Below, in pieces: positions 14,091 to 23,445 of a stretch of DNA of 64,000 bases (its first letter is position 1; the number at the start of each line of letters is the position of its first letter). Under the pieces are notes generated by a model. The model saw only the letters and a list, made by a program, of their open reading frames with translations. It was not told where the DNA came from and made no database searches. This stretch comes from Candidatus Thorarchaeota archaeon (GTDB lineage Archaea; Asgardarchaeota; Thorarchaeia; Thorarchaeales; Thorarchaeaceae), in assembly GCA_003345595.1 (NCBI GenBank), contig PRDI01000129.1, forward strand, positions 6,675-70,674. The letters are read 5' to 3'. Position numbers and translations under genes: made by a program.

Positions 14091-16016
14091 GTGGGTTACA
14101 TGCTAAGACTCACAGGTTATGTCTTCAAACACCCAGGCCTCTTCATAGGTGCCATGGCTGCGGCCGGGACCGGTGTCGTGTTCAACACACTGTCACCTCT
14201 GGTCCTGGTGGTGATTATCGACTCAGTCATACCCACTGCCCAGTATGACCTTGTGTTGCCCTATGCGCTAGTATTCCTCACTCTTGGTGCATTGTATGCA
14301 GTATTCGACGTGGTCGGTCGATATGCGGCTGCCCTAGTGGGGCAACATGTTGTCTTTGACCTGAGGTCTGAGCTCTATGAGAGCCTGTTAGAGAAGGACT
14401 TGGCCTTCTATGATGAGAATGAAACTGGCCAACTGCTTGCCAGAGTCACCACAGATGTCACGACGATGAGAGAGTTTCTCGTCTGGGGCTATCGTGTCAT
14501 ATTCATAGGTGTGACTTCCCTGTTCGGGACATACTACGTGATGTGGTTGCTTAGCCCTCTGCTGACTACATACATGCTGTCTGCAGTTCCATTTCTTATC
14601 CTCTTTGTCTACCTCTATGCGAAGCGAGTGCGTCCTCTGTTCTTCTCATCTCGCACACAGTTCGGCGCACTCAGCAGTGTGTTGCAGGAGAACATTGTGG
14701 GGATGAGAGTCATCCGTTCGTACGCATCGGAAGACAGAGAACTTGAGAGAGTGAACAGAGAAAACAAGCGTTTCTTGGATATTGTTGTCCGTGCGTTCAG
14801 GCTTGATGCGCTGTACTCGCCTCTCATGACTGCGGTCTTGGGGGTTTCAACTGGAATCCTGATCTACGCAGGCGGCATGTTCTACACACTCCACAACCTC
14901 ACATATGGTGAGTTCGCAGGGTTCGTCAGTCTGGTTGGCATGCTAGCCCTCCCGGCTCGGTTCTTCAGTTGGGGACTCGGTATGTACCAGAGAGCCTCGG
15001 CAGCGGCTGAGAGAACTTTCTACATTCTTGACCAGCGTGACATAATGCTGGAGCCAGAGAACCCTGTACATGTGGAGCGGCTCAAGGGCACGGTGGAGTT
15101 CGACAGGGCCGATTTCAGCTACCACGGTGGAAGATGGGTACTTAGAGATGTGAGCCTCAAAGTTGACCCGGGACAGGTCGTTGCGCTTCTTGGTGGGACG
15201 GGTTCTGGAAAGACCAGCCTTGTGAACCTGATTCCAAGGTTCTATGATGTCGACTCAAGTCTTAGCGTTACATACAAGGGGCAGACGTTCAGAATCGATG
15301 AGAGAGGCAGGACGAGGATAGATGGCAAGGACTATGCCGTGTCTGATGGAGCGATAGTAGTCGACGGCGAGAAGATTCTAGTGAAGCAGCCCGGCGCAGT
15401 CCGCATTGATGGCGTCGATGTCCGTCAGTACTCCCTGACCGATCTGAGAAGGCAGATAGGCATGGTTCATCAGGACCCCTTTCTGTTTTCGGCTTCACTG
15501 CGTGAGAACATCGCTTTCGCACGACCGGACGCCACACAGGACGAGGTCGAAAGGGCCGCAAAAGCCGCGATGATACACGATTTCATTGTGACTCTCGAAC
15601 AGGGATATGATACTGTGATTGGGGAGAGAGGCGTGACACTCAGTGGCGGCCAGAAACAGAGAGTCGCAATCGCAAGAGCGATTCTTGCAGACCCCCGCAT
15701 CCTCATCTTAGATGATTCGACCAGCTCGGTCGACGCTAAGACAGAGGAACTCATCAAGCAAGCGCTCGAGAATCTGAAGGCGGGCCGGACCACCTTCATA
15801 ATAACACACCGTCTATCTACAATTCGCAATGCAGACCTCATCGTTATTATGGAAAGAGGGCGGATTGTTGAAACTGGTACACACGACCAGCTGCTCGCTC
15901 GAGGAGGTGTGTATGCTGGAATCCACACGACGCTGAGTCAGATGGGCTCAATCTCCTTGGAGTGGGGAGAGATGGCGGCGACTGCAGAAACAGGAGGAGG
16001 TGGCAGAGGCGGCTAG
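14091..16016 (+). CDS. ABC exporter TMD-NBD subunit 1 (heterodimeric, TM287/TmrB-like)
   Basis: Six TM; GGTGSGKT; LSGGQ; degenerate Walker B LDDS; insertion after Walker A. Confidence 0.93.
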   Translation: MGYMLRLTGYVFKHPGLFIGAMAAAGTGVVFNTLSPLVLVVIIDSVIPTAQYDLVLPYALVFLTLGALYAVFDVVGRYAAALVGQHVVFDLRSELYESLLEKDLAFYDENETGQLLARVTTDVTTMREFLVWGYRVIFIGVTSLFGTYYVMWLLSPLLTTYMLSAVPFLILFVYLYAKRVRPLFFSSRTQFGALSSVLQENIVGMRVIRSYASEDRELERVNRENKRFLDIVVRAFRLDALYSPLMTAVLGVSTGILIYAGGMFYTLHNLTYGEFAGFVSLVGMLALPARFFSWGLGMYQRASAAAERTFYILDQRDIMLEPENPVHVERLKGTVEFDRADFSYHGGRWVLRDVSLKVDPGQVVALLGGTGSGKTSLVNLIPRFYDVDSSLSVTYKGQTFRIDERGRTRIDGKDYAVSDGAIVVDGEKILVKQPGAVRIDGVDVRQYSLTDLRRQIGMVHQDPFLFSASLRENIAFARPDATQDEVERAAKAAMIHDFIVTLEQGYDTVIGERGVTLSGGQKQRVAIARAILADPRILILDDSTSSVDAKTEELIKQALENLKAGRTTFIITHRLSTIRNADLIVIMERGRIVETGTHDQLLARGGVYAGIHTTLSQMGSISLEWGEMAATAETGGGGRGG

Positions 16017-17811
16017 TCCAATCATTGAAGACGAGGAGGAGCGAACCCATGAGTATACGGACTCTTCGCTCCTGAAACGCCTAGTAGGCTACCTGCTTGC
16101 TTACAGGAAGCTCTTTGCCATAGATGTCATCCTAGTGGCGTCAGACATTGCTCTTGCGATAGCGGCGCCTTTTGTTCTCAGACAGGCCATAGATGTAGAC
16201 TTCCCGAGCGGCGACCTTCAAGCTCTTGGAGTCACTTCTTTGATCTATGCTGCCCTCCAGATACTCACCTGGCTCTCTGCCTATGGTTCGGGCTATGTCA
16301 TGAGCATGATGGGGCAGAGCGCGGTCTATAAGATGCGACAGGAGCTGTATCAGCATCTCCAGAGGATGTCACAGGACTTCTACGACCGAACTGCTAGCGG
16401 CAGGATTCTGTCCAGGCTGACCAACGACATTGACAAGATAAGCGAGTTCCTGGCTGGCGGCCTAGTAGATACATTTGCACAGTTGTTTGTGGTTGTAGCT
16501 GTAGGCATCGTGATTTTCACCGTTGATGTACAGCTAGCTTTTGTTTCACTGGCAGTGGTACCGATTCTTGCTGTCACAACTGTCCTCATCAGAATCAGAA
16601 TGAGAGCTGCCTACAGGCGGACCAGGAAGACTATCTCTAGTGTGACAGCAAATCTGGCGGAGAGCATTTCTGGCGCAAAAGTCACAAAGAGCTTCGCTAG
16701 GGAGGATGTGAGCGGTGAGAGGTTTGCAGAGCTGAACAAGGCAGACTACCAGTCGAATGTTGATGCCTCCAGACCGTCGTCCCTGTTCTTTCCTGTGGTG
16801 CGCTTCATTGGTGGTCTGGGCGTGTTCCTGATAATCTGGTTCGGGGGAGTGCGGCTGATTGGAGAAACCCTCACCATCGGAACACTCATCCTATTCATAC
16901 AGTTCAACGATCAGTTCTTCCGGCCTATGCTGATAATCACTAACTTCTACAACACAGTACAGAGCGCCTTTGCCGCGTCAGAGCGTGTGTTCAGCATAAT
17001 GGATACAGAACCAACGATAACAGATGCGACTGATGCAGTTGACATAGGAAACATCAAGGGTCACATCTCGTTCGATGACGTCACCTTCCAATACGTAGAG
17101 AACAGACCAGTACTTGTCAACTTCAGTCTTGACATAAGACCCGGAGAAACCGTTGCGATTGTAGGGGACACGGGTGCAGGGAAGACGACGATAGTGAATC
17201 TCCTCAACAGGTTCTACGACATCAACTCAGGCTCAATCAAGATTGACGATGTAGACATCCGCAGGGTCAGTCAGAAGTCGCTACACTCAGCGATTGGACT
17301 GGTACTGCAGGACCCATTTCTGTTTCAGGGCACTATCAAGGACAATATCAGGTACGGCCGATCAAATGCGACCGAGGAGGAGATAATCAGGGCCACTGAG
17401 GCCATTGGTGCACGAACTGTGTTCGAGAACCTAGAGCACGGCTTCGATACCCAGGTGGGTGAGCGAGGGCTAAGACTGTCTGAGGGAGAACGTCAGCTGG
17501 TGAGCTTCTCTAGGGCTCTGCTGGCCAACCCCAAGATACTCGTACTGGATGAGGCCACCAGTTCGATAGACATCTTCACCGAGCATATCATTCAGAGAGG
17601 TATGAAAGCGCTGATAAGAGGTAGGACATCGATTGTGGTTGCCCACAGACTATCTACCATACTGAGCGCAGACCGGATACTCGTGCTTGACAAAGGACGA
17701 ATCGTCGAGTCGGGCACACACCCGGAACTGATGGCAAAGGGCGGCGTCTATTACTCACTCTATGAACTGCAGATGAGGCCGAGAGTGGCCCACTCACCGA
17801 CAGCCGGGTAG
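16000..17811 (+). CDS. ABC exporter TMD-NBD subunit 2 (TM288/TmrA-like)
   Basis: GDTGAGKT; degenerate signature LSEGE; canonical LDEATS; overlaps subunit 1. Confidence 0.93.
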   Translation: MAEAASPIIEDEEERTHEYTDSSLLKRLVGYLLAYRKLFAIDVILVASDIALAIAAPFVLRQAIDVDFPSGDLQALGVTSLIYAALQILTWLSAYGSGYVMSMMGQSAVYKMRQELYQHLQRMSQDFYDRTASGRILSRLTNDIDKISEFLAGGLVDTFAQLFVVVAVGIVIFTVDVQLAFVSLAVVPILAVTTVLIRIRMRAAYRRTRKTISSVTANLAESISGAKVTKSFAREDVSGERFAELNKADYQSNVDASRPSSLFFPVVRFIGGLGVFLIIWFGGVRLIGETLTIGTLILFIQFNDQFFRPMLIITNFYNTVQSAFAASERVFSIMDTEPTITDATDAVDIGNIKGHISFDDVTFQYVENRPVLVNFSLDIRPGETVAIVGDTGAGKTTIVNLLNRFYDINSGSIKIDDVDIRRVSQKSLHSAIGLVLQDPFLFQGTIKDNIRYGRSNATEEEIIRATEAIGARTVFENLEHGFDTQVGERGLRLSEGERQLVSFSRALLANPKILVLDEATSSIDIFTEHIIQRGMKALIRGRTSIVVAHRLSTILSADRILVLDKGRIVESGTHPELMAKGGVYYSLYELQMRPRVAHSPTAG

Positions 17812-17877: not shown

Positions 17878-18633
17878 TTACAGCTCATCAGACTCGTCAT
17901 CATCGCAAGAACAGTGCGAGTGTTCTGCTGATGGCTCCCAATCATAGAAACCTCTGATATGACCTAATCCTCGCATGGCTCTTGACACTTTGTCGCTGAC
18001 CATGGGACCAATTTCTCGAAGCCATTCAAGATCCGGAATCTTATCACGCCCGAGCACAATTGCTCGGCCGTCCTGACGTCTGATAACTATCCCAGACTTG
18101 CTGACTGAAACAGAGCGACCTTCGCCGTCGATAAAGACTCTCTTGTCTTGCACGAAAGCAAGACTCTCTGGCTTAGTGGCGATGACCACAGACCTGTCGT
18201 CTTCTGTGGTTCCGAGAAGAACGGAACTGCTTCGGCCCTTGACCACAATCTTGTGACCGTCTTCGAGATGCTTCTCGACAACTGAACGCACTTCGTTCAG
18301 GAAAGCGGCTGCATCATTGTACCCAAACCTTCCAAGGAAGTCTGCGGTCGACGGCTGAGAAGCCTTCTCTACTTCCGTCTTTCCGAGATAGATCTGGACA
18401 CCCTTGAGGGCAGATGACTTGGTTTGTCCTACGGCTCCCTTTGAGGTCTCAACTATTGCATCAACGATGTAACGGGATGGACCTGCGAACGCAACTCCGA
18501 CCCGTTCGCCATTGTCTGTCAGATAGACCCACGCACAGCCTGCATCAAGCCTGACAACCGCTTTCTCATGGGAGAGAATGTCAAATGGTGCATTTGTGGT
18601 CATTACAGTTTCTTCAGGCTTTATGTTTCTCAC
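17878..18633 (-). CDS. hypothetical protein (beta-rich, His/Cys/acidic C-terminus)
   Basis: Long ORF coupled by a GTGA overlap to the upstream regulator. Confidence 0.75.
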   Translation of the reverse strand: MRNIKPEETVMTTNAPFDILSHEKAVVRLDAGCAWVYLTDNGERVGVAFAGPSRYIVDAIVETSKGAVGQTKSSALKGVQIYLGKTEVEKASQPSTADFLGRFGYNDAAAFLNEVRSVVEKHLEDGHKIVVKGRSSSVLLGTTEDDRSVVIATKPESLAFVQDKRVFIDGEGRSVSVSKSGIVIRRQDGRAIVLGRDKIPDLEWLREIGPMVSDKVSRAMRGLGHIRGFYDWEPSAEHSHCSCDDDESDEL

Positions 18634-19346
18634 TGTACATCAGCTCCTTCCTTGTTCTTGTCTGCTTCCTCATCAAAGGACACACTAACCTGGCCCTCTC
18701 CACTACTGCCAGTCCGAGACCGTTGCCACTCCACTCTGCTTGTCAACCACTGGGCAAGACGGTATGCTAGGCGACCTGCGACAGTGATATAGTATGTGCC
18801 TCTGACCTCACCCTTAATCACATATCCGGCATCCATCAATGGTGTCAGATGGTGGGTCAATGAGCTGCCAGTCTTCCCTGTGAGCGTTTCGAGCTCATTG
18901 AACGACTTGCCGCCGTCTTTCAGAATGTCAAGTATTCTGAGACGTTCTTCGCTGCCCAAAGGACTCACCGCTTGTGCAACGCGCTCGGCTGGGATGTTCT
19001 CGATTCTTCCCCGGCCATGCTTGCCCATTCTTCTGATCATGAATCGCGGTGACTCCAGACTGACTCCGATATCGCCTACCTCTCGGACAGCTTTGCGTAT
19101 CTGCTCTCCCAGTCCCTCCATCATCTCATCAAGACCATCAGTGATACTGCTCAAATCAACGAAGTGCGAATCTGGCGGAATGCAAGGCTCGGGAGGCCCG
19201 TGCGCTCTGTGACCTCCTCTGAAACGGCCTTCTTCGGCATAGGCTTCTCTTTCCTTGCGAAGACGTTCGACGTCTTCCTTCAGACTCTCTTTGAGCTTGC
19301 GCACTTCTTCGAGTTCTTTGCGAATATCGTCTAGGTTCTCGGTCAT
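18630..19346 (-). CDS. ArsR-type winged-helix regulator with N-terminal coiled coil
   Basis: LGSEERLRILDILKDGGKSFNELETLTGKTGSSLTHHLTPLMDAGYV...GTYYIT..G; SD GGTGAGG upstream. Confidence 0.88.
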   Translation of the reverse strand: MTENLDDIRKELEEVRKLKESLKEDVERLRKEREAYAEEGRFRGGHRAHGPPEPCIPPDSHFVDLSSITDGLDEMMEGLGEQIRKAVREVGDIGVSLESPRFMIRRMGKHGRGRIENIPAERVAQAVSPLGSEERLRILDILKDGGKSFNELETLTGKTGSSLTHHLTPLMDAGYVIKGEVRGTYYITVAGRLAYRLAQWLTSRVEWQRSRTGSSGEGQVSVSFDEEADKNKEGADVQ

Positions 19347-19426
19347 TATTCCTCACCATTTGTACAGTACAGTCATGCACCCGTAAGTCGTAGGTTTCGC
19401 TGGAGTTGTAAGAAATGGAGCCTCTC

Positions 19427-19573
19427 TCAGACTACAAGAGAGCCTCTGAATCGGCGCTCTTCTCCAGAGGTTTCTCTTTCCCTGTGGAGGCGTCTAATCT
19501 CCTCTCTCAGGGTTTGATTGAGTCTGCGCACTTCTTCCAGCTCTTTGCGAATGTCGTCTGAACTCGCGGTCAT
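19427..19573 (-). CDS. 48-aa coiled-coil mini-protein homologous to the N-terminus of the downstream regulator (or 5' gene remnant)
   Basis: Manual translation MTASSDDIRKELEEVRRLNQTLREEIRRLHRERETSGEERRFRGSLVV*; 27/44 identical to the regulator N-terminus; TTTATAAG box about 35 nt upstream. Confidence 0.65.
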   Translation of the reverse strand: MTASSDDIRKELEEVRRLNQTLREEIRRLHRERETSGEERRFRGSLVV

Positions 19574-19775
19574 TCTGGACACTGAGCCTACTGTACATTT
19601 CTACACTTATAAATCTTCGGTTCTATTACAGTCGGCAGAGGCAATCCTCACTCGTACCGAGAATGGCTACAAGAGACTCCCGACCTAATCCTAGTGTTTC
19701 GACCGGAATTGCGGTAAAGACGACGCTTATTATTCTCCATGGGGTGTACCTAATACTGGAAGTGAGCGTGCAAGC

Positions 19776-20048
19776 TTGTTCGAGGAGGACAGAGGCCCGG
19801 GGTACTGCTTGTGTTTTGTAATGAGCATGCTTCCGATACTCGGCTTGTTCCTGCTTGCTCTTCCTCAACTGCCAGTCAGTGAACTGCCCTCTGTTGCCGT
19901 GCTGCTATTCCTAGTCTTCGCGCCGCTCTATGGTTGTGGAGATCTATTCAAGGGGCGGCCAATGTTCCAGTGGCACTATCACGGTGTCGAAACCGAGGTC
20001 ATGGAAGAACTGGCCAAGGAAGTGGACAGCCGTTCCTCAGCCATTTGA
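19776..20048 (+). CDS. possible small two-TM membrane protein or fragment
   Basis: Two hydrophobic stretches; TTG start; no recognisable family. Confidence 0.35.
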   Translation: MFEEDRGPGYCLCFVMSMLPILGLFLLALPQLPVSELPSVAVLLFLVFAPLYGCGDLFKGRPMFQWHYHGVETEVMEELAKEVDSRSSAI

Positions 20049-20107
20049 CGGTATATTGAATGTCTGCCTGCTCTTCGGAACTGATGCTGCACAGCAGGCC
20101 TGCAGTT

Positions 20108-20626
20108 TCAGTGTAGCTGTTTCAGGCAACTGGGACAGAAAGTGCTTGGTTTTCGGTCTGTGTCATCCAAGCAGTTTGAGAAACGCATGACACAATGCTG
20201 TTTACAGTGGGAAAGACCAAACACATGGCCAACCTCATGTAGCGCCTCCTTCGCCACCCGCTCGAAGTGCAGTGCCTCATTCTCCGGCAGGCCATAGAAC
20301 ACGGGGCTGAGCCGGGGCAGAGCAACAAGAGCGTGCCCACCGTACTGCGCAAGACCGAATATGAAGTTCAGACTTGGAACAAAGAGGTCTAGGCTAACTA
20401 GACCAAGTCCGTGCTTGCCCGACGGAACGCGATGGCCAACTGTATCCAAGAAGGGGTCTGCGGAGTACTGCCGACGCGCCGGCACGTACGCGTTCACGGG
20501 CACTGGCAGCTCGACCGGGTCCACAGACACCTCCGCGAGATTACTGGGCAGCCCAGTGCTGAGCGCATCAGGAAGTCGATTCACTATGCTCTGTGGCGTT
20601 TTGGGAAAGACAAGGACGCGCAACAT
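20108..20626 (-). CDS. amzA: archaemetzincin-family Zn-dependent metalloprotease
   Basis: RRQYSAD, DLFVPSLNFIFGLA, KEALHEVGHVFGLSHC...CVMRFSN...DRK...FCPSC. Confidence 0.9.
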   Translation of the reverse strand: MLRVLVFPKTPQSIVNRLPDALSTGLPSNLAEVSVDPVELPVPVNAYVPARRQYSADPFLDTVGHRVPSGKHGLGLVSLDLFVPSLNFIFGLAQYGGHALVALPRLSPVFYGLPENEALHFERVAKEALHEVGHVFGLSHCKQHCVMRFSNCLDDTDRKPSTFCPSCLKQLH

Positions 20627-20926
20627 TGTCAATCGTGACACCCGATTTGGGATTGTGTTGACTACTATATGTATTCGTTCATGGACCTGATTGGCGTGCA
20701 ACAGCTGACTCAGTTGTCAATCAAGATCACGCTTGCAAGGGTCAATGACAATGTCACTCTGACGCTTTGGTGGTATTCTGGAACATGGATTAACGCATGC
20801 GGCCCCAACTGGCTCCTGTTGTCACCATTTGTGGTTCTGCCCGCTGTTGTAGGCCTCATACTGGTTGTTAACGGGCTGACTCGGGCCAAGGGAATTGACT
20901 CTGATGACCTTTCCTGACCCAAGGGC

Positions 20927-21132: not shown

Positions 21133-23445
21133 TCAAAGTTCATGCATCTGTCTGGGTTCTCCATGAGGCCTTCTTCGAACCAGTAAGGCTTCTGGTCCCC
21201 TGTTGGCCGACCTTCGTATCAATGTTACGAGGACAGCCATCAAGGCTGCCATCCCCAGTCCGACTCCTGTCGCCACAATCAATAGTGAGAAGGCACCATC
21301 TTGGGTCGTAATGGTGGTGGTCGTAGTGGCATTCGTGAGCTTGAATACGAAACAGTCGCTCGGTCCACTCAGAGTGCCGTCGTAGGCTTTCACAGTGGGG
21401 AAGTCCCAGGAAACAGTGTACCCCGTGACGTAGGCATCACCTGTATTGACCACTGCTACGCCGTAGCCACCTTCTTCATCGCTTCCGCCCACAAAGGTTG
21501 AAAAGAGCAAGGTGTTGCCAGCAGACGAAAGCTTGAACACAAATGCATCCTTGTATCCACCAAAGGTGCTGTTATAGGCATTCACAGTGGGGAAGTCACT
21601 CGAAAAGGTTTCACCGGTAACATATGCATTACCATTACTGTCAACCGCTATCGCGCAGCCATACTCGTGATGCCCACCGCCCACAAAAGTCGAGTAGAGC
21701 AGAGTGTTGCCAGCGGATGAAATCTTGAACACGAAGACGTCTCCAGAACCTCCATAGGCATTGCCATGGTTGCTGTCGTATTCGTTCACAGTGGGGAAGT
21801 CACTCGAAAGGGTTTCACCGGTAATGTATGCATTGCCTGTGCTGTCAACTGCTATCGCACAGCCAGCATCGGTATCACTCCCGCCTACGAAAGTGGAGTA
21901 GAGCATACTGCCAGCGGATGAAAGTCTGAACACGAAAACATCGTCGGTTTCACTGGCGGTGCTGTTGTAGGCGTTGACAGTAGGAAAATCAGTGGAATCC
22001 GTGTATCCGGTGACAAAGGCACTACCCGTACTGTTAACTGCTATCGCACTACCACCATCTTGGCCATTCCCACCCACATAGGTGGAGTAGAGCAGGGCGT
22101 TCCCGCCAGACGAAAGCTTGAACACAAAGCAGTCAGCATACCCACCAAGGGCGCTGTCGTATGCGTTCAAGGCGGGAAAATCACTTGAAAGGGTTTCACC
22201 GGTAATGTATGCATTGCCTGTGCTGTCAACTGCTATCCCATAGCTACGATCCCAACTACTGCCACCTACATACGTTGAATAGAGCAGACTGTTGCCGGCC
22301 GAAGAGAGTTTGAACACGAAACAGTCGTAGACTGCACCATTGAACATGCTGTCGTAGGCGTTGACGGTGGGAAAATCAGTGGATTCAGTGTATCCGGTGA
22401 CATATGCATTGCCTGAATTGTCGACTGCTATCCCCCGAGCCCAATCGTTACCGCTTCCGCCCACGTACGTGGAATAGAGCAGAGTGTTGCCGGCGGATGA
22501 AACCTTGAACACAAATGCATCCTTGTATCCACCAAAGGTGCTGTTGTAAGCGTTCAGAGTTGGAAAATCCAGAGAATCAGTTACCCCGGTGATGTAGGCA
22601 TTACCTGCCCCGTCAACTGCGATTCCATAGCCATGTTCGCTGCCAGTTCCGCCCATATACGTGGAGTAGAGCAATGGGTCTAGCACCAGCGGCCTTGATT
22701 TATCGTAATCGCCTACTCTGAATCCAAATACATGGTAACCAAGCGAGATGAACTCACTCTCAACGGCATTCGTTCCTTGAAATGATCTCAAACCCTCATC
22801 TGTTAGCGTTCTACCGTCCTTCTCCAGACTCAAGGACGTACTTCCAATCACCACCGAATCAGTGCCATTACATCGGACTCTGATGTCTGTCGGGTCACCA
22901 CCGGGAGCCACGCGGAACTCATACTTTGCCCCATCTACCGTAGCCTCATAGAAGAGGCTGATTCCTAACCAGAGGTCATTGTATACGACACGAGCGAACC
23001 CCCTGATTCCAGTGAATGTCCCACGGTTTCCGAGAAGGTAGCTAATATTATGACTTACTCGATTGATTCCTTGCGGGATTACAGAACGCGCCGCATCAAA
23101 TGACATGACTATACCATTCTCGACCCCATCTATCCATACATAGACCTTGCTGTCTGCAAAACCAATTACCCCGCCTGGGATTCTCCCATAGAATCTCACA
23201 TCAGCGCAATCAACTTGACCGAGATTCTCGTAGAAGAAACTTCTGGACTCGGTCTGAACCGTTTCGACCAAAGCTTGCTGGTCGACTCCGTTCGTTTTCA
23301 AACGGGATGTCTCATCGCCTTCAACGAACTTCCAATCATTCAAACAGGGTGCCATGAATGCCACGGTTATCAGGATAATTATCAGCTCGGGCACAAAAAG
23401 CAAGTCTATCTTCGATGCACCCACGTATCGCCTCTCCTTAGCCAA
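21133..23445 (-). CDS. SBBP beta-propeller-repeat surface protein with C-terminal TM anchor
   Basis: FYENLGQ N-terminal domain, PLVLDP, seven repeats of LLYSTY/FVGG..D/E.G.GIAVDS.GNAYVTG.T.S.DFPT.NAY; Thr linker and TM. Confidence 0.92.
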   Translation of the reverse strand: MAKERRYVGASKIDLLFVPELIIILITVAFMAPCLNDWKFVEGDETSRLKTNGVDQQALVETVQTESRSFFYENLGQVDCADVRFYGRIPGGVIGFADSKVYVWIDGVENGIVMSFDAARSVIPQGINRVSHNISYLLGNRGTFTGIRGFARVVYNDLWLGISLFYEATVDGAKYEFRVAPGGDPTDIRVRCNGTDSVVIGSTSLSLEKDGRTLTDEGLRSFQGTNAVESEFISLGYHVFGFRVGDYDKSRPLVLDPLLYSTYMGGTGSEHGYGIAVDGAGNAYITGVTDSLDFPTLNAYNSTFGGYKDAFVFKVSSAGNTLLYSTYVGGSGNDWARGIAVDNSGNAYVTGYTESTDFPTVNAYDSMFNGAVYDCFVFKLSSAGNSLLYSTYVGGSSWDRSYGIAVDSTGNAYITGETLSSDFPALNAYDSALGGYADCFVFKLSSGGNALLYSTYVGGNGQDGGSAIAVNSTGSAFVTGYTDSTDFPTVNAYNSTASETDDVFVFRLSSAGSMLYSTFVGGSDTDAGCAIAVDSTGNAYITGETLSSDFPTVNEYDSNHGNAYGGSGDVFVFKISSAGNTLLYSTFVGGGHHEYGCAIAVDSNGNAYVTGETFSSDFPTVNAYNSTFGGYKDAFVFKLSSAGNTLLFSTFVGGSDEEGGYGVAVVNTGDAYVTGYTVSWDFPTVKAYDGTLSGPSDCFVFKLTNATTTTTITTQDGAFSLLIVATGVGLGMAALMAVLVTLIRRSANRGPEALLVRRRPHGEPRQMHEL
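21532..22545. repeat. exact DNA repeats inside the SBBP gene: 42 bp (21532-21573 = 22504-22545) and 51 bp (21806-21856 = 22187-22237)
   Basis: Base-by-base comparison. Confidence 0.85.

Follow-up and report, generated by a model that had tools for sequence, protein, structure and literature searches.

An upstream copy of the promoter and N-terminal helix of an ArsR-type regulator in Thorarchaeota: origin by tandem duplication and a candidate microprotein

In this study, we show by aligning the locus with itself that a tandem duplication of about 230 bp took in the promoter and operator together with codons 1-45 of the gene for an ArsR-type regulator, and that the upstream copy holds the TATA box and the palindrome at their usual distance whereas the downstream, full-length regulator has lost both and carries a GGTGAGG motif. 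The short open reading frame (ORF) in the upstream copy may encode an antagonist that pairs with the regulator and tunes the operon, a reading which as a whole we hold at a probability of roughly 0.45. The evolutionary anatomy of the locus is unusually clean and the clade that carries it is small; the function proposed for the peptide is drawn from analogy. The window is the whole stretch of DNA that was analysed, 64,000 nucleotides in length, and the features that concern us are the following.

19573..19427, minus strand: short ORF of 48 codons and a stop, a free-standing duplicate of the amphipathic helix at the N-terminus of the regulator
19606..19613, minus strand: TATA box TTTATAAG of the canonical promoter of the family, at -40 of the short ORF
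19591..19606, minus strand: palindromic operator-like site (G)TGTAGAAATGTACA(G), of the TGTA-N6-TACA type, at -32 of the short ORF
19442..19676, minus strand: duplication unit 1, about 103 nt of upstream DNA and codons 1-44 of the short ORF
19212..19441, minus strand: duplication unit 2, from the junction TCTCTTGTAG through the decayed promoter copy to codon 45 of the regulator
19381..19388, minus strand: decayed TATA copy ACTTACGG, in the spacer, aligning with TTTATAAG of unit 1
19351..19357, minus strand: Shine-Dalgarno-like GGTGAGG, 4 nt before the ATG of the regulator, present in G000 (the genome of the window) and in its sister species G001
19346..18630, minus strand: regulator, 238 aa; from the N-terminus, one helix at about 5-35 and another conserved one at 64-85, then a basic linker, the winged helix of ArsR type at about 125-205 and, last, an acidic tail
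17878..18633, minus strand: partner gene, 251 aa, of no known family, its GTG start overlapping the stop of the regulator by 4 nt

The limits of the duplication emerge from the alignment of its two units. The coding DNA of the short ORF is identical to that of the regulator at 98 of 135 bases (z = 31.6 against shuffles), and the upstream parts of the units share 62 identical columns (z 3.9; 2 of 500 shuffles scored as high), while past codon 45 no similarity to the regulator was detected (40 of 500 shuffles scored as high). Moreover, the 10-mer TCTCTTGTAG at 19676..19667 recurs at 19441..19432, where the similarity to regulator coding DNA stops. The limits of the upstream and coding alignments and the recurring junction 10-mer thus define a unit of about 227-235 bp, reaching from about -103 to +132. 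The short ORF reads past the junction for five codons, and the last three of these (L-V-V) and the stop are former upstream DNA. The original prediction had named, as the alternative to a decoy, a 5' remnant of a replaced paralog. This alternative is removed, because the duplication took the promoter and the 5' coding end and the HTH was never in the copy, which also explains why no decayed HTH is seen; a search for one behind the short ORF found the spacer to align with the upstream promoter region. The unduplicated state is represented by a metagenomic contig, L025, in which the promoter stands directly before the regulator, there is no short ORF, and the gene order (M54 peptidase, regulator, 251-aa gene, ABC transporter) is that of the window. 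The short copy and the regulator are separated by a dS of 0.65-1.0, and the duplication therefore predates the split of the G000 and G001 species.

It had been predicted from the letters of the window that a minus-strand ORF, the first behind a promoter box, encodes a gap-free likeness of the N-terminus of the regulator. The ORF is real: it opens at the ATG at 19573, behind TTTATAAG at 19613..19606, and its product (MTASS...RFRGSLVV) has 48 aa, or 51 aa if translation begins at a GTG at 19582. In a BLASTP comparison with the 238-aa protein, the 48-mer aligned without gaps to residues 1-45 of the regulator with 27/45 identities and 35/45 positives (E 7e-16), in keeping with the many conservative substitutions described at the outset, and the nine identical residues said to use synonymous codons were counted again as nine (9/27). 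The spacer between the stop of the short ORF and the ATG of the regulator measures 80 nt, as claimed. The resemblance ends at codon 45, and the regulator residues beyond 1-45 are matched by no second copy. The absence of a DNA-binding domain was likewise confirmed, since a Pfam scan returned an HTH_5 match in the regulator and none in the 48-mer, for which the scan gave sub-threshold coiled-coil matches to Rootletin and Mis12 alone and no SinI. The exact 48-aa sequence is absent from a collection of 15 billion proteins, in which a 48-aa cluster 90% identical to it is present. The claim that a TGTACA hexamer precedes both starts held in part: the hexamers lie at 19597..19592 and 19366..19361, but the second is missing in G001, so that the pair does not stand as a conserved feature.

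The hydrophobic heptad positions were said to be preserved, and the core positions and most family-conserved residues were indeed found unchanged. The 48-mer forms one amphipathic helix that retains the hydrophobic positions 8, 12, 15, 18, 22, 26 and 29, and with them 7/8 of the family-conserved hydrophobic positions. Of the residues conserved in the family, D6, I8, E11, L12, E13, E14, V15, R16, L18, L22, E25, I26 and L29 are kept, as are the flanking charges R9, E11, R16, K/R23, E25 and E32. Descriptively, and as far as its sequence goes, the 48-mer resembles a microProtein, being small, related to part of a larger regulator and devoid of a DNA-binding domain. Judged from the heptad-like pattern alone, residues 1-45 of the regulator would be the interaction domain.

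The regulator belongs to a family that is conserved in Thorarchaeota, as indicated by orthologues in 23 of the 24 other genomes of the family that were searched (the source genome of the window has 2.7 Mb and is 83% complete). Its residues 133-178 match the ArsR family HTH_5 (PF01022) in Pfam with 31.8 bits against a cut-off of 22; the NCBIfam cut-off for ArsR/SmtB (NF033788) was missed, at 30 bits versus 55. Solved structures gave weak matches confined to the winged helix, and no solved ArsR protein matches the 120-residue N-terminal extension with its two conserved helices. ArsR-type domains usually dimerise via their own helices, which weighs against the N-terminal helix as the element of oligomerisation. 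In an alignment of 24 full-length regulators, the N-terminal helix is strongly conserved, with the consensus (M)SDDID-IRKELEEVRRLKE-LK-E-E-VR, and is followed by a variable linker rich in proline and arginine, by the second conserved helix (DL-GLTDSLE-MM-GLGEQI), and then by a basic stretch, the winged helix and the acidic tail; R16 and L22 are invariant, and D6, I8, E11, L12, E14 and E25 nearly so. In a separate alignment of the N-terminal module, which comprises 24 sequences, 22 of them regulators, E11, L12, E14, R16 and L22 are invariant, and the regulators carry large hydrophobic residues at positions 8, 12, 15, 18, 22 and 26 in 22/22 cases, at position 29 in 95% and at position 5 in 86%.

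Conservation of this degree bears on the partner of the peptide. The conservation of the motif D-IRKELEEVRRLKE-L goes far beyond the needs of a generic coiled coil, and the motif might dock another protein, for instance the 251-aa protein, for which the peptide would then compete. The gene for the latter is paired with that of the regulator, stop and start overlapping, and it follows the regulator directly in 12 of 13 loci searched, the exception being L026, which ends at the regulator. However, nothing supports a contact of this kind, and for the 251-aa protein neither Pfam nor NCBIfam gave a match, its ESM Atlas model being poor (pLDDT 0.36). We regard competition for a third protein as improbable.

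The promoter region offers the clearest view of what the duplication did to the regulator. Ahead of most orthologues the layout is AACCGAA-TTTATA-(a few nt)-CTGTAC-ATTAT-TACAGT-(10-15 nt)-ATG, the promoter standing directly ahead of the start with no Shine-Dalgarno-like site. Of 24 loci, 19 have a TGTA-N6-TACA palindrome in the 120 nt that precede the regulator start, for the most part at -27 to -32, and a TATA box lies 40-44 nt ahead of the start in 10 of the 14 orthologous loci in which a regular expression for TATA found a match. This layout appears to be that of a short-leader, autoregulated gene whose product would bind the palindrome. In many orthologues (L005, L006, L017, L018, L023, L027, L028 and others) there is a pair of TGTA-N6-TACA sites, one at about -64 to -67 and one at about -27 to -31, with the TATA box between them, an arrangement which suggests cooperative binding by a higher-order oligomer. 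At the duplicated locus, TTATAAG and the palindrome that follows it form one unbroken stretch identical between G000 and G001, while nearby intergenic DNA differs by 10-15%. Across the window, the operator motif was matched twice against 1.3 matches expected, and only the match at this locus is meaningful.

In the 80-nt spacer, a search by regular expression found neither a TATA-like element nor a TGTA-N6-TACA palindrome, and a T-run terminator candidate is also absent. Because the spacer lacks both TATA box and palindrome, the short ORF, the regulator and the 251-aa gene are probably read in this order as a single transcript from the captured promoter. The short ORF begins at exactly the usual start position of the family and is probably translated, and GGTGAGG presumably serves for ribosome binding at the regulator. 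Contigs of one RNA library (X6), in which DNA may be present, cover only 17900-19229 and hence no part of the short ORF, and contigs of the DNA runs likewise leave 19454-19749 uncovered; such gaps carry no information. It could be argued that translation of the first cistron on so long a leader is what sets the output of the regulator, in cis, the peptide itself having no partner. The start of the regulator has come to lie 227 nt away from the canonical position, and the regulator relies on a Shine-Dalgarno site that it has acquired; in the congeneric genome G002 an 18-codon ORF occupies the same canonical position, both of which agree with such a role. Against it, the gap of 80 nt between stop and restart means that there is no direct translational coupling, the fold of the leader RNA is unremarkable (z -2.3), and a role of position only does not predict selection at the amino-acid level, for which the 8:4 ratio described below speaks, if from only 12 changes. 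We therefore consider a purely cis-acting ORF very unlikely.

The reading that we favour, that of an antagonist pairing with the regulator, would work as follows. The regulator would repress the captured promoter through the palindrome, so that the peptide would be made together with its target and under the control of that target. The peptide would then, and this step is less certain, pair with the N-terminal helix of the regulator; in a parallel pair, as projected from the heptad pattern, the retained charges would attract one another alike in homo- and hetero-pairs. Hetero-oligomers would carry fewer DNA-binding domains and would lower the valency of the regulator at palindromes flanking the TATA box, and the weaker cooperative binding would loosen repression and raise the set point of the operon. 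SinI affects SinR in this manner (PMC3917956), and H-NST affects H-NS likewise (PMC6936261).

How widely the free-standing copy occurs was examined with several queries. It was found in 2 of the 87 genomes of the order (G000 and G001) and in one metagenomic protein cluster. With the regulator as query against 41 genomes, only G000 and G001 gave a separate match confined to the N-terminus; the second matches obtained from G003, G007 and G012 fall in the regulator's own frame, that of G003 in a frameshifted piece of it, and an in-frame tandem repeat of the coil in G012 was set aside as merely a longer coiled coil. The 48-mer as query matched in 27 of the 87 genomes, twice only in G000 and G001, and its remaining matches lie in frames of 229-344 aa, save the 78-aa piece of G003. 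A search of 5.8 billion protein clusters found a single one made up of 48-aa proteins; its 3 members lie on 8 contigs. When the N-terminal module was run as a profile against 1.84 billion representatives, 18 matches were obtained, of which nine of 44-162 aa were examined. P0001 is the 48-aa copy itself. As free-standing copies, P0005 was rejected since it is the frameshift piece of G003 (72 aa), P0004 since it matches a frameshifted reading of a full-length regulator (L030), and P0006 and P0010 since they end inside the HTH and are partial. P0007, P0008, P0009, P0012 and P0016 carry linker sequence and odd tails and may or may not be free-standing copies; a scan for the context of P0007 found nothing. 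Public sets thus hold several proteins of 44-94 aa (P0004, P0007, P0008, P0009, P0012 and P0016) in which the N-terminal module is followed by unrelated tails, and the low-complexity linker of the regulator may be prone to frameshifts or sequencing errors. The recurrence of a syntenic short ORF in relatives, which had been proposed as a check, was seen, among the genomes of the order, in G001 alone, the total staying at 2/87 genomes, and the very close relative L025 is without it. The distribution is narrow, and the free-standing copy is therefore a young trait of one lineage within one genus.

Two further members of that genus have unusual arrangements at this place. In G003 (L008:1280-1560), the regulator is split by an apparent single extra T into an ORF of 72-78 aa, which runs from the coil through the linker into the beginning of the second helix, and an ORF of 165 aa beginning MMEGLGEQ, which holds the winged helix; this could be an assembly error or a natural division into a coil protein and a DNA-binding protein. 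The leader ahead of the G003 regulator is about 65 nt long. In G002 (L004, minus strand), about 85 nt separate the canonical promoter and palindrome from the regulator, GGTGA precedes the regulator, and the 18-codon ORF mentioned above, which begins ATGACCGCA, overlaps the regulator start. It may be that the leaders of G002 and G003 are what is left, after decay, of this 5' duplication or of one like it.

This distribution is also what one would expect if the short ORF were a neutral by-product, a half-copy without a function of its own, its peptide untranslated or harmless, which has stayed intact since it is young and short. The narrow distribution, the close relative that lives without the short ORF, and the leaders of 65-85 nt with no coil ORF, if decayed, all fit such a by-product. 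The pattern of substitutions points the other way. Five distinct variants are known (G000, G001 and three metagenomic), all intact and of 48 aa, and no stop or frameshift, the fate that the original prediction had named as a test, was met in any of them. Between G000 and G001 the short ORF has 12 differences, 8 synonymous and 4 non-synonymous, so that dN/dS, the other test named, came to 0.13, and its dS of 0.287 equals that of regulator codons 46-238. In a neutral simulation of 12 random substitutions, four or fewer non-synonymous changes had a P of 0.0034-0.0064 for kappa 2-4 (the ts/tv ratio of the locus is 1.4), which makes the 8:4 ratio unlikely for a by-product, although the signal consists of 12 substitutions in one species pair. 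Moreover, a paralog dS of 0.65-1.0 is too high for a very young copy, and its frame and hydrophobic pattern have nevertheless been retained. The same simulation left the frame free of stops in 56-69% of runs; intactness alone therefore says little, and on this count the by-product loses nothing. When all six frames were compared, the sense frame alone was both fully open and low in dN/dS. An antisense gene was considered and rejected: the plus-strand ORF 19415..19561 has 2 synonymous and 9 non-synonymous changes, and the other antisense frame of low dN/dS has a stop. On these comparisons, the short ORF looks conserved as a protein.

Where the short copies have departed from the regulators, the changes are less easily read. 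At 13 codons both short copies differ from all three close regulators, and 8 of these differences are non-synonymous. They include L5S, K19N and E27R, at family positions where the regulators have a hydrophobic residue in 19/22 cases (position 5), K or R in 22/22 (position 19) and E or D in 22/22 (position 27), and the paralog-specific changes shift the net charge from -2 to 0/+1. The metagenomic variants alter E14, which is invariant in the family, and D32. The non-conservative replacement of three residues conserved in the family, together with a share of 8/13 non-synonymous codons, favours a neutral by-product, and the paralog-specific changes would fit early relaxed constraint as well as adaptation to a new function. 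With both kinds of evidence in hand, we judge a neutral by-product rather unlikely. The regulator has changed in the same region: between G000 and G001, its codons 1-45 (window 19212-19346) have a dN of 0.10 versus 0.044 for the remaining protein, and codons 36-45 of the G000 regulator are strongly derived (Y36, A37, G40 and G45). This fast change of the N-terminal helix may reflect co-evolution with the peptide or relaxed constraint. The G001 regulator resembles the short ORF at codons 36-45, and gene conversion was considered as the source of the coding-like pattern; it is unneeded, because the unduplicated L025 shares these states and it is the G000 regulator that is derived there.

The duplicated module has also been exchanged by recombination. 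Across the 251-aa gene and the ABC transporter, G001 shares 97-99% identity with L025 (dS 0.07-0.10), with G000 as the outlier (dS 0.44-0.47). Over about 1.3 kb, from about 20110 to 18770, a stretch that takes in the intergenic DNA upstream, the short ORF and the regulator as far as codon 190, the tree pattern is reversed: for regulator codons 46-190, dS is 0.18-0.37 between G000 and G001, 0.38-0.72 between G000 and L025 and 0.34-0.54 between G001 and L025, and inside the tract G001 and L025 are 69-88% identical (window 18770-20110 compared with L022 and L025). From codon 191 on, the dS between G001 and L025 falls to 0.03, and to the left of the tract the peptidase gene shows a third pattern, with a dS of 0.31-0.51 for all pairs. 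By the reversal of the tree, a module of the promoter, the short ORF and the 5' four-fifths of the regulator is one that has been exchanged by homologous recombination, and by the dS values its import into the G001 lineage, with a donor resembling G000, is somewhat the likelier direction, the reverse being possible. The tree of the tract agrees with the presence and absence of the duplication, so that one origin suffices. The L025 genome, with flanks almost identical to those of G001, carries a different regulator allele and no short ORF, which is therefore dispensable in at least one background. As to the neighbourhood, the position of the upstream peptidase (20108-20701, minus strand; M54, archaemetzincin-type) and that of a convergent downstream ABC exporter with fused membrane domain (16000-17811, plus strand) are kept in close relatives; further upstream, a 770-aa protein (21136-23445, minus strand) with a DUF7948 domain, SBBP beta-propeller repeats in five matched stretches and a hydrophobic end segment is probably a surface protein.

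If the pieces are put together, the locus might hold a newborn archaeal microprotein, made in one step by a 230-bp duplication that let a repressor control its own antagonist, as in a circuit of the SinI kind but in an Asgard archaeon, and moved between related species, with the promoter and the matching 5' part of the regulator, as a co-adapted unit, a fuller picture that we put forward tentatively. Should the peptide be active, an antagonist can arise by a single mutation that also captures the promoter; should it be inert, what remains is a clean and dated example of a 5' tandem duplication by which both the transcription and the translation of a regulator were rewired. The natural alleles with and without the short ORF, in nearly identical backgrounds, are a ready comparison for experiments, and 48-codon genes beside regulators in uncultured archaea are recognisable from sequence alone.

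Transcription factors that are poisoned or tuned by truncated paralogs are known from plants and animals, and bacteria offer a few cases (SinI and H-NST). A full-text search of a limited literature collection returned no archaeal antagonist of this sort and no paper on the regulator family. The regulator itself is like the ArsR/SmtB autoregulators in having an HTH_5 winged helix above the Pfam cut-off and a palindrome over its own promoter; it differs from them in falling below the NCBIfam cut-off and in its N-terminal extension of 120 residues with two conserved helices. Id and LITTLE ZIPPER are eukaryotic microProteins. These and miP1a/b have been shown experimentally and usually come from gene duplication and domain loss or from alternative splicing, whereas the peptide described here is known from sequence and came from a single 230-bp tandem duplication, in one step and within a prokaryotic operon. 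MicroProteins are described as short single-domain proteins which resemble the interaction domain of larger, multi-domain transcription factors and sequester them (PMC4807768, PMC7584889). In pathogenic E. coli, the truncated H-NS derivative H-NST is reported to counteract H-NS (PMC6936261); its gene lies at another place, on DNA gained by horizontal transfer, and its target is a nucleoid protein, in contrast to our short ORF, which is young and stands in tandem with its regulator. The closest likeness in arrangement is to SinI/SinR of Bacillus subtilis (and SlrA), where a small protein related to the oligomerisation helices of a repressor is encoded upstream of it on a partly common mRNA. SinI is described as the product of the cistron just ahead of sinR on a bicistronic mRNA and as blocking SinR tetramers, its 1:1 complex keeping SinR from assembling into the DNA-binding oligomer (PMC3917956). 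The 48-mer has no sequence relationship to SinI and no SinI or other Pfam domain, and its pairing is predicted by analogy; here, in an archaeon, the copied module is the N-terminal end of an ArsR-type winged-helix protein, and the short ORF took over the regulator's own, putatively autoregulated promoter.
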